Shown piece after piece: positions 1 to 4,613 of a stretch of DNA of 4,613 bases (positions within the stretch are counted from its first letter, which is position 1; each line of letters opens with the position of its first letter). The notes below the pieces were generated by a model. That model saw nothing but the letters and a program-made list of their open reading frames with translations, searched no databases and was not told the DNA's origin. The stretch is from a virus (taxonomy: Duplodnaviria > Heunggongvirae > Uroviricota > Caudoviricetes): positions 1 through 4,613 of IMG/VR virus record IMGVR_UViG_2731957954_000006; one strand, 5' to 3'. A program made the translations under genes and the position numbers.

Positions 1-404
1 CCAACAACCAGTTCGGTCTGGGAATTTATCTGTATACCGATGTAGCGTTACCTGACGTCGTGGCGATGACCGGGACTGGTAACCCGTTCCTGATGTCGTT
101 CTTCACCCAGACCACAGACGGCAAACTGAATCTGATGCATCACAAGAAAGCCGGAAACACAAAGTTGGGCGAGTTCGGGAATTACAGTAACGACTGGCAG
201 ACGCTGGAGCTGGTGTTCACCGCCGGCAGTGCCACGGTTACTCCGAAACTGAATGGAGTGGCTGGCCCGGCATTCCAGGTCATAAAAGACAGTCTGACAG
301 TGGGACTAAATGCACTGACGCTGACGGATATTACCAAAAATGCAACGTATGGCGTTGAGATAGAAAGTCTGGTGCTGGAGATAAATGCACCGGCATCATC
401 ATAA
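1..404 (+). CDS. 3' end of a larger late-region ORF (5' end lies outside the window); function not assignable
   Basis: The frame ending at TAA 402-404 is open back to the window edge (hand translation of 3-59 gives NNQFGLGIYLYTDVALPDVV with no stop), so the GTG at 60 in the ORF track is not the real start. The translation is protein-like but I recognise no motif. Its position directly upstream of the holin matches the large ORF that lambdoid prophages carry between Q and S. Confidence 0.6.
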   Translation, partial: NNQFGLGIYLYTDVALPDVVAMTGTGNPFLMSFFTQTTDGKLNLMHHKKAGNTKLGEFGNYSNDWQTLELVFTAGSATVTPKLNGVAGPAFQVIKDSLTVGLNALTLTDITKNATYGVEIESLVLEINAPASS

Positions 405-489
405 AAAGTGAGCCAGTCAAATGGAAGGTATCGTTAAACTCACCGGTAGTGTCAGTGGGTCGTCTGAGATGCCTGCATGAGTTATCAGA

Positions 490-519
490 GCCATCAGTAC
501 TTAACTGGTGGCTTTTTTT
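490..519 (+). terminator. Rho-independent terminator-like hairpin upstream of the holin
   Basis: GCCATCAGT (490-498), loop ACTTA, ACTGGTGGC (504-512): a 9-bp stem with one G-U pair, followed directly by TTTTTTT (513-519). It lies 86 bp after the upstream ORF stop and 36 bp before the holin start. Confidence 0.55.
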
Positions 520-554
520 ATTGTTGTCAGCTTCCGGATAACGGGAGACGGGGT

Positions 555-770
555 ATGTACCAGATGGAAAAAATCACAACAGGTGTGTCATACACCACGT
601 CAGCGGTGGGAACGGGCTACTGGTTCCTGCAGTTGCTGGACAGGGTTTCCCCGTCTCAGTGGGCGGCAATAGGCGTGCTGGGGAGTCTGCTGTTTGGGCT
701 GCTGACATATCTGACTAACCTGTATTTCAAAATCAGAGAGGACCGTCGTAAGGCGGCGCGGGGGGAGTAA
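555..770 (+). CDS. S: Class II holin, phage 21 S21-type pinholin (71 aa), with dual-start motif
   Basis: The translation [71 protein letters not shown] closely resembles S21 as I recall it (two TM segments, charged C-terminal tail [13 protein letters not shown]). ATG 555 and ATG 564 form the M-x-x-M dual start typical of antiholin/holin pairs. SD GGAGA at 544-548. The track ORF starting at 477 would run through the terminator hairpin and is rejected as the start. Confidence 0.9.
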
Positions 771-774
771 AGCG

Positions 775-1416
775 ATGAAGAAAAAATACGAACTGGGTGT
801 TAAAGGGATAAATAATTATCCGGATAAGATTACTGTTACTGTGGCACTGGAAATTGGTGGGTATCCGTCACTGTTGTTGCCAGATGTGGCGATTAGTCTT
901 GACCGTACTGAAGGTGCCACGCTGGAGTTTTACGAAGCTGAGGCGAAAAAGCAGGCGAAGCAGTTTTTCATGGATGTTGCTGCCGGGTTATGTGAAGGGA
1001 ACGAACCGTTGCCGGAAAAGCGCCCCATAATTTTAGAGGCGCAGGATGTGTTGATAACCTACAAAGGAAAGCTACCGGGAAGAATTACTGGTTCTCTGAA
1101 GATGCCGCCGTCAACACTGCGGTCAGAAAAAGAGGCGTCTTGTCTGCAGTCTGAGTACTCCATTACGGTTAAAAGTGCCGGAGAGGAAGGAAATAAACGT
1201 TATTTTATTGCGTCTGCACCTGATAAAGATCAGGAATGGGAGTGTAACCGGCCATCCTTTGTTGTATACGGAGATGGCGGGAAAATAACCATCTCAGAAA
1301 ATGGGAAATTAACACCGCCATCGCACCAGCATAGTGAGGCGCTCATTGAATTTGCCATTGATTACCTGAAGAACAATAAAAAGCAGGGGCTGATGAAGCG
1401 CCATGGGCTGTGTTAA
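775..1416 (+). CDS. Hypothetical 213-aa soluble protein inserted between holin and endolysin (possibly DUF1327/YdfR-like; unverified)
   Basis: ATG 775 lies 4 nt after the holin stop, with SD GGGGAG (762-767) inside the holin 3' end. The ORF is long and uninterrupted with a balanced, hydrophilic composition and no N-terminal signal peptide or TM segment. The same position in E. coli Qin prophage is occupied by ydfR, but I cannot confirm homology from memory. Confidence 0.75.
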   Translation: MKKKYELGVKGINNYPDKITVTVALEIGGYPSLLLPDVAISLDRTEGATLEFYEAEAKKQAKQFFMDVAAGLCEGNEPLPEKRPIILEAQDVLITYKGKLPGRITGSLKMPPSTLRSEKEASCLQSEYSITVKSAGEEGNKRYFIASAPDKDQEWECNRPSFVVYGDGGKITISENGKLTPPSHQHSEALIEFAIDYLKNNKKQGLMKRHGLC

Positions 1417-1584
1417 TGCTCTGGCGATAATGCCGAGAGTCACAGGTGTGAGATGTCCATACGGCTCAGCCTGAATGGATTTTACTGCATCGTGTTCTTG
1501 TGGGAGGAGTAAGAGGCACTCTGATTTTACCCGCTCATTTATGGCTTGCAGGCATAAATCATAATTATGTTGATCGTTATGCAT
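1309..1584 (-). CDS. Candidate small convergent ORF (91 aa) in the holin-endolysin spacer
   Basis: Minus-strand ATG at 1582-1584 is preceded by AGAGGA with a 6-nt spacer (reverse complement of 1585-1597). The first 55 codons or so lie in otherwise non-coding DNA; the last 36 overlap the 3' end of the 213-aa ORF. No recognisable family. Confidence 0.3.
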   Translation of the reverse strand: MHNDQHNYDLCLQAINERVKSECLLLLPQEHDAVKSIQAEPYGHLTPVTLGIIARALTQPMALHQPLLFIVLQVINGKFNERLTMLVRWRC

Positions 1585-1712
1585 GGTTAATCCTCTACTG
1601 AAATTGTCAGATATATTTCAGCCATCAGGAAAAACGCCAGTGTCCTACCGCTGGCGGGCTGAAGATTTAACATATCCAGGGATTCGGAACCGATAAATCC
1701 TGATAAATATCC

Positions 1713-2246
1713 ATGAACACCAAAATCAAATATGGCCTGTCGGCTGCCGTTCTGGCGTTGATTGCCATCGGTGCGCCTGCGCCTGATATTCTCGACCAGT
1801 TTCTGGATGAAAAAGAAGGTAACCACACAACGGCATACCGTGATGGTGCGGGTATCTGGACCATCTGCCGCGGTGCCACAATGGTGGATGGTAAACCTGT
1901 TATTCCGGGCATGAAACTGTCGAAGGAAAAATGCGACCAGGTTAATGCCATTGAACGGGATAAGGCGCTGGCATGGGTGGAGCGCAATATTAAAGTTCCA
2001 CTGACCGAACCACAGAAAGCGGGTATAGCGTCATTCTGTCCCTATAACATTGGCCCCGGTAAGTGTTTCCCGTCGACGTTTTATAAGCGGCTGAATGCTG
2101 GTGACCGCAGGGGAGCGTGTGAGGCGATTCGCTGGTGGATTAAGGACGGTGGCAGAGACTGCCGTATCCGCTCAAATAACTGTTATGGTCAGGTATCCCG
2201 TCGTGACCAGGAGAGCGCGCTGGCGTGCTGGGGAATCGACAGATAA
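1713..2246 (+). CDS. R: SAR endolysin, T4-lysozyme-type muramidase (GH24), 177 aa
   Basis: The N-terminus KYGLSAAVLALIAIGAPAP is a Gly/Ala-rich weakly hydrophobic signal-anchor-release segment. The catalytic triad spacing E-x8-D-x5-T is present (EGNHTTAYRDGAGIWT). Overall layout resembles R21. No convincing SD upstream of ATG 1713. Confidence 0.9.
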   Translation: MNTKIKYGLSAAVLALIAIGAPAPDILDQFLDEKEGNHTTAYRDGAGIWTICRGATMVDGKPVIPGMKLSKEKCDQVNAIERDKALAWVERNIKVPLTEPQKAGIASFCPYNIGPGKCFPSTFYKRLNAGDRRGACEAIRWWIKDGGRDCRIRSNNCYGQVSRRDQESALACWGIDR

Positions 2247-2340
2247 GCAGAATATTTTGCTGAAAAATAAGGTATGGCCACGCGGGCGGATAACACGAAA
2301 TCCTGCGAACTGGCGAAACGTAAGTGAATAAAAGTAAAAA

Positions 2341-2372
2341 CCCCGTTTGTTGGCACCAAGCGGGGTTTTGTG
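2341..2372 (+). terminator. Terminator-like hairpin after the endolysin (possibly bidirectional)
   Basis: CCCCG (2341-2345) pairs with CGGGG (2361-2365), with partial extra pairing TTGG/CCAA inside; followed by TTTTGTGTTT and preceded by AAAAA (2336-2340). Confidence 0.5.
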
Positions 2373-2402
2373 TTTCTGACCTTGAGTAAGGCAAGGGAGA
2401 AC

Positions 2403-2585
2403 ATGGCGAAGTATAAACGAATTCTGTTGAGGTTGACTATGAAAAATGGCCTTGAACTGAAAGCGCCTGTAACTGATGACATCAGCAGAGCACTGGCTTT
2501 TGCCATTAAGTGGGTGGCGGTCGGTGTTGCTGTGTTCCCGATGCTGTATGGGCTGGCAAAACTGGTCATTGCGTTGAAATCGTGA
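2403..2585 (+). CDS. Small membrane protein, 60 aa, basic N-terminus and one C-terminal TM segment
   Basis: Strong SD AAGGGAGA (2391-2398) 4 nt before ATG 2403. Translation [60 protein letters not shown]. The GTG at 2370 used by the track lies inside the hairpin and is rejected as the start. Confidence 0.55.
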
Positions 2586-2599
2586 AGGGAGGATTAAGC

Positions 2600-2731
2600 A
2601 TGTCAGACAAACTCATAACGCTGGCGAAGATCCTCTGTGTAATTGTCGGCATTTCATTTTCACTAATGCTGGTTGCTCTTTTTCTTTCCATGGCCTGGAT
2701 GATGTTGTCTTCGTCGGGGTTGCTGGGGTGA
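2600..2731 (+). CDS. Small membrane protein, 43 aa, single TM segment
   Basis: SD GAAGGGAGGA (2585-2594) overlaps the stop of the preceding small ORF, with ATG at 2600. Translation [43 protein letters not shown]. Its TGA stop (2729-2731) overlaps the Rz GTG start (2728-2730) as GTGA. Confidence 0.5.
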
Positions 2732-3201
2732 ACATAAACCGAATGCTTTCCGCGTTTATCGTTATTCTGCTGGTGGCCTGTGGTGCGCTGTGGATGGCAA
2801 CAGACCATTACCGTGATAACGCGATTACCTACAAAGCGCAGCGCGATAACAAAGCCAGTGAACTGAAGCTGGCGAACGCAACCATTACTGATATGCAGGT
2901 GCGCCAGCGCGATGTTGCTGCGCTCGATGCAAAATACTCGAGGGAATTATCCGATGCGAGAGCTGAAAATGAAACTCTGCGCGCTGATGTTGCCGCTGGT
3001 CGTAAGCGCCTGCGGATCAACGCCACCTGTCCAGGCTCCGTGCGTGAAGCCCCCACCACCTCCGGCGTGGATAATGCAACCGGCCCCCAACTGGCAGACA
3101 CCGTTACACGGGATTATTTCACCCTCAGAGAGCGGCTGATGACGATGCACAAGCAACTGGAAGGGGCACAGGACTATATCCGCACTCAGTGCCTGAAATA
3201 A
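2728..3201 (+). CDS. Rz: Rz inner-membrane spanin (i-spanin)
   Basis: Strong resemblance to lambda Rz as recalled ([45 protein letters not shown] ... [27 protein letters not shown]), with an N-terminal TM segment and coiled-coil body. The start could be GTG 2728 (coupled) or ATG 2743. Confidence 0.9.
2954..3139 (+). CDS. Rz1: Rz1 outer-membrane lipoprotein spanin (o-spanin), embedded in the +1 frame of Rz
   Basis: Translation [61 protein letters not shown] has a lipobox (VSAC), a proline-rich stretch and the conserved [14 protein letters not shown] core of lambda Rz1. It lies wholly inside Rz. Confidence 0.85.
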
Positions 3202-3551
3202 GTTTTGTTGATGCGCCGTATCGTCGCTGTATTCCCTCATTAACAGAGACCGCAGCCCGACAGGGAGACTCCTCTGCGCGAGTGTGCGGGGATAATCAAA
3301 AACGATACACACCGGGGTTTACCGCGTTAACGGAGCGCGGCGTTGTCCCCTCATAGTCGCCTGTCCGGTGCGATGGTGGAAGAAGCCGGATGTTTATCAC
3401 TATTAATTGATGACACAGAAATGGATTCATTGAATTTCAGCACGTTTTTGTATTCGTGTTATTGAACATCTGTTAATTTTACTTTTAACATATTGATAAT
3501 AAAAAGAGCTGTAAATCTTTAGATGAGTCGATTTTGTCCGGGGAAGTTCAA

Positions 3552-3692
3552 ATGGATTTTATGCTGACGGTTTCTGGTGTGGTTATCCTGTCCATTGCTT
3601 ATACTGCAGATAAATATGGCTGCCATTTGTTATCACGTATTGGCGCTTATTGTTCGTTGATGCTGATTTTCTCGTCGCTTTTTTTTGAGTAA
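3552..3692 (+). CDS. Candidate 46-aa hydrophobic small protein in AT-rich island
   Basis: ATG 3552 is preceded by GGGGAAG with a 5-nt spacer. Translation MDFMLTVSGVVILSIAYTADKYGCHLLSRIGAYCSLMLIFSSLFFE. The ORF is followed by a T-run and sits in a locally AT-rich segment (about 3400-3720). Confidence 0.25.
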   Translation: MDFMLTVSGVVILSIAYTADKYGCHLLSRIGAYCSLMLIFSSLFFE

Positions 3693-3824
3693 GTTATATT
3701 AATTATAACAAATAATTTTCTGTGTTATTTTTTCAGGCTATCCCGTCAGAGGGGAAGCCTGTACTGCCGGGGAGCAAATGGAAAACTGATGTGTCCGGTA
3801 ACTGCGTGTTCTGTGAACACCATG

Positions 3825-4010
3825 TTACTTAATTATGTAATTCATACCCGAACTCTCTGTTGACAGCCTTCTTCTGCAGGCTTCAATAACCCACGCTGAA
3901 AAGTTTCCTGAACCTTTCAGATCAAGAGCGATGTTAATTTGTTCAATCATCTGGTTTGGAAATCGGATGTTGCGGGTTGTTGTTCTGCGGGTTCTGTTCT
4001 TTGATGACAT
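3825..4010 (-). CDS. Small YlcI/YnfO-like (DUF3950-type) prophage protein, 61 aa
   Basis: Translation MSSKNRTRRTTTRNIRFPNQMIEQINIALDLKGSGNFSAWVIEACRRRLSTESSGMNYIIK resembles, from memory, the small proteins encoded next to Nu1 homologues in E. coli cryptic prophages (ylcI by nohD, ynfO by nohQ). A ribbon-helix-helix-like fold is possible. Confidence 0.6.
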   Translation of the reverse strand: MSSKNRTRRTTTRNIRFPNQMIEQINIALDLKGSGNFSAWVIEACRRRLSTESSGMNYIIK

Positions 4011-4165
4011 AACGTTTCCCCATATTCAGTGTTGCTGATTTGTATTATCTGAAGTTGCTTTTACGTTAATTTGACGCAGATCAATTAATACGATACCTGC
4101 GTCATAATTGATTATTTCTCGTGGTTTGATGGCGTACACACATGTTGTGATAAACCTTATATAGA

Positions 4166-4180
4166 TGATAATCATTATCA
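4166..4180. promoter_or_regulatory. Perfect 7-1-7 palindrome TGATAATCATTATCA, Fur-box-like
   Basis: Seen directly in the sequence; matches the Fur operator inverted-repeat model tGATAATnATTATCa. Further GATAA-type hexamers lie just upstream (TGTGATAAACC, TAGATGATAAT). It is about 37 bp left of cosN. Confidence 0.3.
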
Positions 4181-4204
4181 TTTCGTGGGTCCTTTCCGGC
4201 GATC

Positions 4205-4404
4205 CGACCGGTTACGGGGCGGCGACCTCGCGGTTTTTCACTATTTATGAAAATTTTTCAGGGAAAATCGTGTCGGTACTTCTCGAATATAACTTTTTGT
4301 TTTTTTTAATATTACATCCGTAAAGGTCCGACATGAAAGTGTCCGAAAATGCCTTTTTCTGGCGTTTTCATGTCGGGCCTTGTATTTGATAATGGGTTGT
4401 TTTC
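4205..4404 (+). other. cos: Lambda-type cohesive end site (cosN with flanking cosB)
   Basis: CGGTTACG|GGGCGGCGACCT|CGCGG matches the lambda cos junction, with the 12-nt cohesive end GGGCGGCGACCT at 4217-4228. The downstream CACTATTTATGAAAATTTTTCAGG matches the lambda cosB proximal region. The nu1 start follows at 4405. Confidence 0.85.
4324..4380. promoter_or_regulatory. Inverted repeat in cosB (candidate terminase small-subunit binding sites or RNA hairpin)
   Basis: AGGTCCGACATGAAA (4324-4338) and TTTCATGTCGGGCCT (4366-4380) are reverse complements at 14 of 15 positions, separated by 27 nt, about 25 bp upstream of the nu1 start. Confidence 0.35.
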
Positions 4405-4613
4405 ATGAAGGTTAATAAAAAGAGGCTTGCCGAAATTTTCAACGTGGACCCGCGGACGATTGAACGCTGGCAGTCTCAGGGACTCCCTTGCGCCTCCAAA
4501 GGTAGTAAGGGCATTGAATCTGTATTTGATACTGCCATGGCAATTCAGTGGTATGCGCAGAGGGAAACTGATATCGAAAACGAAAAGCTCCGCAAAGAAC
4601 TGGACGATTTGCG
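4405..4613 (+). CDS. nu1: Terminase small subunit Nu1 (N-terminal part; continues beyond window)
   Basis: Translation [69 protein letters not shown] aligns by eye with lambda Nu1 (MEVNKKQLADIFGASIRTIQNWQEQGMP ... IENEKLRREVEELR), including the winged-HTH region. Absent from the ORF track because it runs off the window end. Confidence 0.9.

Follow-up and report, generated by a model that had tools for sequence, protein, structure and literature searches.

Two small genes of the uncharacterised YlcI/YnfO (DUF3950) family have been described in the cryptic prophages of Escherichia coli K-12: ylcI (b4589), which adjoins nohD in DLP12, and ynfO (b4533), which adjoins nohA in Qin, each divergent from the neighboring homologue of the terminase gene Nu1. 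The second of these is included in the E. coli 'y-ome' listing of uncharacterised genes, and a literature search for a functional study of the family found none. Here we analyze a relative of these genes carried by a 4,613-nt stretch of DNA (positions 1 to 4,613 of IMG/VR virus record IMGVR_UViG_2731957954_000006; hereafter the window), which represents the late-region end of a lambda-like prophage. An earlier note, made from the sequence alone, had described on the minus strand, just left of the cohesive-end site (cos), a 61-residue YlcI/YnfO-like protein with a basic, Thr/Arg-rich N-terminus, in the same neighborhood in which K-12 prophages carry ylcI and ynfO; the open reading frame (ORF) at 3825-4010, the cos site at 4217 and the positions of the DLP12 and Qin genes bear out this description. 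The further suggestion of that note, control of terminase or neighboring morons by the protein, is speculative.

Both the annotation of the family and the presence of Fur and FNR sites beside its K-12 members were known already. To this we add a link between those sites and the gene, an unannotated copy of the gene in phage lambda, moderate support for a predicted fold, the adjacency of the gene to two kinds of packaging module, and satellite proteins in which its domain is fused to part of a terminase. These additions do not establish what the gene does. The best overall explanation we can offer, which stands about evenly between right and wrong, is that the gene encodes an Arc-like regulator made from its own leftward promoter, with FNR as the activator and Fur as a modulator.

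Results

A DUF3950 gene under strong purifying selection

The gene occupies positions 3825..4010 of the minus strand (61 codons and a stop codon, with an ATG start), and its product is MSSKNRTRRTTTRNIRFPNQMIEQINIALDLKGSGNFSAWVIEACRRRLSTESSGMNYIIK. A putative Shine-Dalgarno sequence, GGGGA, can be read 6 nt before the ATG (4017..4021, minus strand) and is kept as GGGG or GGGA in related loci. The protein matched Pfam PF13132 DUF3950 (67.5 bits against a curated cut-off of 25, E 9e-19), NCBIfam NF041551 YlcI_YnfO_N (35.2 bits, curated cut-off 30) and phrog_949 (E 9e-32). It contains the motif IRF...NFSAWV..AC that marks this family of ~40-80-residue proteins, and an alignment of 26 members, this protein among them, shows R16, F17, F37, S38, V41, A44 and C45 as invariant. 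Over positions 3700-4300 the DNA shares 99.8% identity with a prophage in E. coli O104:H4 2011C-3493, in which the counterpart of the gene is annotated as 'YlcI/YnfO family protein' (WP_001329960.1). Like ylcI and ynfO, the gene holds a lambdoid prophage position divergent from a Nu1/Noh gene across cos, and it is a true member of this catalogued, uncharacterised family. The earlier note had proposed that lack of any relation to DUF3950/YlcI proteins, together with lack of expression, would count against it; the profile matches are positive, and ylcI is transcribed in K-12, where a convergent ybcW-ylcI overlap was reported in at least 50% of RNA-seq samples.

When the copies from the window, lambda, Qin and two HK97-type prophages were compared, the ratio of nonsynonymous to synonymous substitution rates (dN/dS) over codons 1-49 was 0.02-0.06, and among 60 distinct sequences the variable columns at codon positions 1, 2 and 3 numbered 10, 8 and 32, respectively. 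This is therefore a real protein-coding gene under strong purifying selection. Its 150-nt core was found in 4174 of 5426 complete E. coli genomes (77%), which together hold 9487 copies, with as many as 12 in one genome. Exhaustive search of 1.8 billion cluster representatives matched only 106 clusters, so the family is narrow; diverged true members (36-60% identity) occur across Enterobacterales, where R16, F17, I25, F37, S38, V41, A44 and C45 are invariant. Many matches attributed to unrelated taxa (Streptomyces, Cohnella, Pedobacter, Pseudomonas and others) lie on contigs of lambda DNA of 3.5 kb or ~48.5 kb (L012-L046, L065 and L072 in our set of loci), which are probably contamination from sequencing controls, and noisy copies of lambda swell protein databases with frameshifted 'homologues'.

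Phage lambda itself carries a 64-residue homologue at complement(48109..48303) (locus L004, 2210-2404, minus strand). It is missing from the lambda reference NC_001416.1, in which nothing is annotated after lambdap79, and is called a hypothetical protein in a different lambda record. A published map of lambda gene essentiality by CRISPR interference left this copy out because the screen used the reference gene list, from which the gene is omitted. From about codon 30 through cos, the window and lambda are ~90% identical, the non-coding part included. We also considered lambda 'orf-64' as the same gene and rejected it, since that is a distinct ORF located between Q and S.

A conserved core joined to exchangeable tails

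Within the gene, a conserved core (codons 1-49; 3864..4010, minus strand) is set apart by dN/dS, by its invariant residues, and by the structural model and Arc profile match described below. It is made up of a basic N-terminal arm, a predicted beta-strand (NIRFP), a helix at residues 19-32, a G-S-G-N turn, and a helix that begins at NFSAWVIEAC. The remainder is the variable C-terminal tail STESSGMNYIIK with the stop codon (3825..3863, minus strand), where the gene meets its downstream module in mosaic fashion. Copies differ beyond residue 49, with at least five unrelated tails, each paired with its own downstream module: a DUF1398 gene that begins 57 nt downstream for the Qin-type tail; ybcW, DUF1398 and bor for the lambda/DLP12 tail; and a convergent small hydrophobic ORF (3534-3692) for the STESSGMNYIIK tail. 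The tail appears dispensable, and the unit that is conserved consists of codons 1-49 and the upstream DNA through cosN.

This recombination junction falls just inside the 3' end of the gene (window 3825-3863; loci L090-L169). The convergent ORF, on the plus strand at 3534-3692, would encode 52 residues from a TTG start; it is a 46-residue hypothetical protein in the O104:H4 annotation, has no Pfam match, and is the constant companion of the STESSGMNYIIK tail.

A predicted ribbon-helix-helix fold

An AlphaFold model built from 20 sequences (mean predicted local distance difference test score, pLDDT, 72) shows an extended N-terminus, a helix at residues 19-32, a tight turn, and a helix at residues 37-55. 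This arrangement fits the protomer expected of a ribbon-helix-helix protein, in which the strand forms in the dimer only; a single chain was modeled here. In the family alignment the turn between the helices is the glycine-containing K-G-S-G-N. The invariant hydrophobic residues I15 and F17 alternate with the polar residues T12, N14 and R16, among which R16 is invariant and T12 and N14 vary.

The segment NIRFP-NQMIEQINIALDLKG of the window protein lines up with NLRWP-REVLDLVRKVAEENG of phage P22 Arc, the sequence of which was verified against the P22 record. Comparison of the two family profiles by hhalign gave a score of 22.8 (P 4.2e-4), with the strand and helix A in register. This score exceeded those of all 200 column-shuffled controls (mean 9.6, standard deviation 2.4, maximum 20.2), and a reversed profile scored 5.8. 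The Arc profile is shallow, because the search for the Arc family returned close relatives only. A weak match to a HicB-like PHROG was also observed (E 0.012), and DUF3950 family members fused to helix-turn-helix domains exist. Sequence and profile searches of PDB chains gave chance matches only. We consider it likely, though not proven, that the window protein has a ribbon-helix-helix fold like that of P22 Arc. The ribbon-helix-helix-like core suggested by the earlier note gains moderate support from the model and the Arc profile match.

FNR and Fur sites upstream of the gene

The upstream region contains an FNR box that the earlier note did not mention, TTGACGCAGATCAA (4071..4084), which agrees with 9 of 10 consensus positions (TTGAT-N4-ATCAA). 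It is the sole FNR match in the window (0.01 expected by chance) and precedes the ATG by 61-74 nt. The perfect version, TTGATGCAGATCAA, is present in lambda (48364-48377), Qin and DLP12. In K-12, Grainger et al. found FNR peaks at both loci by chromatin immunoprecipitation (ChIP) on microarrays and confirmed binding in electrophoretic mobility shift assays. Myers et al. detected both FNR peaks by ChIP-seq in all of their datasets, gave 'ylcI' as the estimated target, and assigned the site a position weight matrix score of 16.68, the highest among the entries in the part of their list that was consulted here; they also placed nohA among the operons whose FNR response is possibly masked by Fur repression.

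Farther upstream lies a 15-nt Fur box with a perfect palindromic core, TGATAATCATTATCA (4166..4180), for which a pattern search predicts 0.02 matches by chance. It begins 170 nt from the ATG in the window and 163 nt from it in lambda-type copies, and the same site is present in Qin and DLP12, 149-163 nt before the start codons of ynfO and ylcI. Chen et al. 2007 reported the Qin copy as their 'nohA' Fur site (22.3 bits; position -233 relative to nohA), which Fur shifted in gels and which had first been cloned by Fur titration, and the DLP12 copy as their 'nohB' site (25.3 bits). The Fur-like palindrome of the earlier note is thus a Fur site already in the literature, where its binding in vitro and its selection in vivo are documented and it is assigned to nohA/nohB. 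These assignments presumably pre-date the annotation of ynfO and ylcI, because both genes have later b-numbers. A Fur ChIP paper (PMC4676285) does not mention the ylcI and ynfO loci. Binding of FNR and Fur to the orthologous K-12 DNA has been shown in the literature, and the upstream region is a regulatory hub with published sites for the host sensors of oxygen (FNR) and iron (Fur); at the one-mismatch variant in the window, FNR binding is predicted from the sequence.

A candidate -10 hexamer, GATAAT, can be read on the minus strand at 4044..4049 (GACAAT in lambda and K-12). Judged by its position, transcription would start at about 4036-4037. The center of the FNR box, at 4077.5, is 28 nt upstream of the hexamer and would be at -40.5 to -41.5 from such a start, the geometry of a class II activator. 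Both boxes and the -10 are kept in 72 of 90 related loci.

Repeat search also revealed an imperfect palindrome with 13-nt arms (ATCAATTAATACG/CGTCATAATTGAT; 4080..4112), a candidate operator, interleaved with an 8-nt inverted repeat (TGACGCAG/CTGCGTCA; 4072-4079 and 4097-4104). These interleaved repeats (4072-4112) overlap the FNR box and might form either an operator for the protein or an RNA hairpin (RNA fold z -2.3). A search for an operator motif common to lambda-type and HK97-type upstream regions found an 11-mer in L147, which we do not count as evidence because L123 lacks it.

The cos neighborhood

The gene is directed away from cos and separated from it by 206 nt (4011-4216), in keeping with the orientation and the upstream region of about 200 nt given in the earlier note. 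A cosQ-like heptamer, GGGTCCT, lies on the plus strand at 4187..4193, 6 nt from the Fur box; it is identical to lambda 48473-48479, the heptamer identified as cosQ in work of the Feiss laboratory. The cosN cohesive-end sequence GGGCGGCGACCT (4217..4228, plus strand) forms the left end of a mature phage-21-type genome, and the phage 21 records X02501 and OL657228, which start at the mature left end, match the window from 4217 on with 99.7% identity. Escherichia copies that adjoin a Nu1-type terminase keep cosN at exactly -213 relative to the start of the gene. The window has 220 nt instead, owing to the insertion of 7 bp, TAAACCT (4151..4157), relative to lambda, Qin and DLP12, as identified by alignment with lambda. 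The insertion creates a second Fur-like half-repeat (4148-4160) and, on the plus strand, a promoter-like TTGTGA-16-GATAAT (4145-4172) that lies over the Fur box and is directed toward cos. A cos pattern search found no site within 3 mismatches near distant homologues; the link between the gene and cos is therefore not universal.

No credible known RNA family was found in an Rfam scan of positions 3600-4450. An ORF on the minus strand across the regulatory region (4026-4181) was rejected as a gene, as its differences from lambda are mostly amino-acid-changing; its counterpart is called a hypothetical protein in some lambda records (locus L002, 2651-2764, minus strand). The rest of the window is late-region sequence: a holin gene, a lysozyme gene (1713-2246), Rz (2728-3201), and then the short accessory region that ends at cos. 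The start of a phage-21-type small terminase gene (Nu1/gp1; 4405..4613, plus strand) follows on the other side, as flanking context outside the gene unit.

Two packaging modules and a set of satellite relatives

In HK97-type loci the gene lies ~40 nt from, and divergent to, a module of HNH endonuclease, Terminase_2 small subunit (TerS) and large terminase (TerL). This HNH-TerS-TerL module occurs in place of Nu1-A in L123 and L147 (1739-2959, minus strand). Since the gene is found beside Nu1-A as well, it is a constant neighbor of two unrelated packaging modules.

About half of the distant homologues reside in satellites resembling P4 or phage-inducible chromosomal islands (PICI), and others are chromosomal with no obvious mobile-element genes nearby. 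The order in these satellites is integrase, AlpA, an AntA/Bro-type protein, the oppositely oriented DUF3950 gene, a small gene, and a primase-helicase operon; ~60 bp separate the divergent DUF3950 gene from the replication operon, a placement that by analogy would suit a repressor. The same position has been named the 'Bro zone' in a published description of helper-embedded satellites. A search for P4-type immunity RNA in seven satellite loci found none, reporting tRNA genes only. In several satellites (L054, L071, L077 and L084-L089; for example, L088 5634-6608, minus strand), a frame of up to 429 codons without a stop runs antisense across the DUF3950 gene, and its last part is a small, conserved Icd-like protein.

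In five diverged clusters, an N-terminal DUF3950 or similar domain is joined to a truncated Terminase_2 small subunit, of which the first ~50 residues alone are present (L003 4714-5103; L172 9001-9429; P0193, P0285-P0288). These fusion proteins are 48-86% identical to one another, and their C-terminal part is 62% identical to the N-terminus of the TerS encoded beside the gene in HK97-type prophages. The satellite in L172 that bears such a fusion sits inside the late genes of a prophage. The fusions could be an analogue of the PICI protein Rpp that acts on HK97-type helper phages.

Discussion

In the explanation that we favor, lambda-like phages carry this gene as their last leftward one before cos. 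Because it is antisense to the late transcript, the gene needs a promoter of its own, and this would be the leftward promoter with its -10 at 4049-4044, which lacks a usable -35. Its activation, in the class II manner, may come from an FNR dimer at 4071-4084, and Fur at 4166-4180 may modulate either this promoter or a divergent one, such that the protein would be made in the lysogen at low oxygen and perhaps at low iron. The product would be an Arc/MetJ-type ribbon-helix-helix dimer, in which the N-terminal strands (residues ~12-18) pair as a two-stranded ribbon in the major groove of DNA, with T12, N14 and R16 facing the DNA and the basic arm (residues 4-11) adding contacts. As a small repressor of transcription, it may act on DNA of the phage or prophage, and the first places to look for its targets would be its own control region and the accessory genes nearby. 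That it represses, what it represses, and in which direction and with which sign FNR and Fur act are inferences.

Several results weigh against this explanation. On the side of the fold, hhalign assigned Arc a probability of just 34%, and Arc was picked for comparison after the resemblance had been noticed by eye; a Pfam scan of 26 divergent members (E up to 10) returned no recurring ribbon-helix-helix family, and a structural match to a solved ribbon-helix-helix protein was sought and not found. On the side of regulation, a consensus promoter scan detected no sigma-70 promoter on the strand of the gene; class II activation by FNR would account for this result and for the absent -35. In the work of Grainger et al., lacZ fusions had weak activity and depended hardly at all on FNR, but they were oriented toward nohA and not toward ylcI. 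Myers et al. saw no FNR-dependent change in expression of the ylcI and ynfO operons in anaerobic glucose minimal medium, a single condition in which Fur is active. The Fur box is ~136 nt upstream of the predicted start and may serve a rightward promoter. In addition, 18 of the 90 lambdoid loci (~20%), in which an HK97-type module lies beside the gene, have unrelated upstream DNA with neither box.

Some of these observations would suit a different assignment of the sites, in which FNR and Fur serve a rightward promoter that reads across cos into the terminase, or have no regulatory effect, and the gene is expressed constitutively at a low level. The literature links the Fur site to nohA, the plus-strand TTGTGA-16-GATAAT of the window overlaps the Fur box, and the missing FNR response of Myers et al. 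agrees with it. Yet the spacing of that plus-strand element is due solely to the 7-bp insertion and is absent in lambda and K-12, and the nohA assignments are probably older than the annotation of ynfO and ylcI. Moreover, the FNR box is 61-74 nt from the ATG, with a conserved -10 at class II distance, and at least 320 nt from the Nu1 start; the target estimated by Myers et al. is ylcI; and virion DNA has the sites at one end and Nu1 at the other. We regard this assignment as unlikely. Even less can be said for the view that the ORF is incidental and that conservation reflects cis-acting DNA beside cos. The ~90% identity to lambda does extend over non-coding DNA, and cos-flanking DNA has cis-acting signals such as cosQ, but the substitutions are overwhelmingly synonymous, homologous proteins of 36-60% identity occur in unrelated DNA contexts, and the curated family models are passed. 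The dN/dS values effectively refute this view, which can hardly be right.

The remaining alternatives concern what the protein acts on. It might bind near cosQ/cosN or to the small terminase and modulate cos cleavage, for example by shielding the prophage cos in lysogens or in a phage-satellite conflict over packaging specificity. In Escherichia the gene is always the immediate divergent neighbor of the packaging module, whether this is Nu1-A (with cosN at a fixed 213 nt) or the unrelated HK97-type HNH-TerS-TerL, and the satellite fusions join the DUF3950 domain to that same type of TerS. Set against this, the gene is antisense to the late operon that produces terminase, most distant homologues have no cos nearby and are found in the satellite 'Bro' zone or in chromosomal contexts, and adjacency may just mark the border between exchangeable modules. 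Established lambda genetics is not known to place any essential gene between Rz and cos. A packaging-site role is therefore unlikely, and we hold as more doubtful still a broader version in which the protein takes part in packaging control or phage-satellite conflict and the FNR/Fur sites abutting cosQ set its level in the lysogen. Under that version, the protein would bind DNA beside cos, or the small terminase, and satellites would have copied its domain and fused it to the DNA-binding domain of a helper TerS, yielding an Rpp-like device that redirects HK97-type terminases. It is similarly improbable that the protein is the antitoxin or regulator of a DUF1398 protein (YdfO/YbcV) in a two-gene accessory cassette. 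In Qin and many prophages a DUF1398 gene does follow on the same strand, starting 57-58 nt farther on, ribbon-helix-helix antitoxins typically sit before their toxins, and the HicB-like PHROG match, weak as it is, points the same way; but the window has neither a DUF1398 gene nor any same-strand ORF downstream of the gene, where a co-transcribed toxin would be expected. At least five different downstream modules occur, satellite and chromosomal homologues have no DUF1398 gene, and we found no report of DUF1398 toxicity.

Long listed under 'nohA/nohB' as binding without effect, an FNR site and a Fur site that rank with the strongest in K-12 fall in the control region of a gene that is strongly conserved, probably encodes a DNA-binding protein, and is carried, frequently in more than one copy, by some three quarters of complete E. 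coli genomes. The lambda copy makes it testable in the best-known phage what the protein binds and whether it is produced in the gut, where oxygen and iron are scarce. Separately, the satellite proteins that contain the DNA-binding domain of a terminase offer a lead on the hijacking of packaging by satellites.

Compared with K-12 YlcI and YnfO, the window protein is ~94% identical over residues 1-49, and its gene has the same position and orientation beside a Nu1 homologue and cos, with the Fur box, FNR box, -10 and Shine-Dalgarno at the same distances except that the Fur box is displaced by 7 nt, the 7 bp being inserted between the FNR and Fur boxes. The window differs in its tail (12 residues, versus 15 in YlcI and 28 in YnfO), in the one mismatch of its FNR box, in having a convergent small hydrophobic ORF as downstream neighbor in place of DUF1398 or ybcW, and in cosB and Nu1 of phage 21 type. 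Ribbon-helix-helix antitoxins (the HicB C-terminal domain, CopG/RelB/ParD) share the predicted fold and the weak HicB-like PHROG match, whereas no toxin gene adjoins the window gene and PADLOC models of defence and toxin-antitoxin systems gave no match. Rpp of PICI resembles the satellite fusions only, as a small satellite protein in which a dimerising DNA-binding module is joined to the DNA-binding domain of a helper small terminase. Because Rpp combines a winged helix-turn-helix with a coiled coil and has no DUF3950 domain, we rejected the idea that the DUF3950 family is Rpp; nor does the window protein contain a terminase-like part.

In predicted fold the protein resembles P22 Arc and Mnt (PF03869), with which it shares small size, a basic N-terminal arm, a predicted two-helix core, and the strand motif N-[IL]-R-[FW]-P leading into a helix of equal length that ends in G, the profiles matching in register. 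Searches with hidden Markov models revealed no homology to Arc or to other Pfam families of the ribbon-helix-helix type, structural searches gave no match, and the P22 proteins belong to an immI setting whereas the window gene flanks cos. In its genomic habit the gene resembles bor and lom, lambda morons expressed in the lysogen, being a short independent unit in the Rz-cos region, opposite to late transcription, with variable neighbors and sites for host regulators. Those genes encode envelope proteins, whereas the product here is probably a DNA-binding protein; and unlike typical morons, this gene is the one constant member of its region, held at a fixed distance from cosN.

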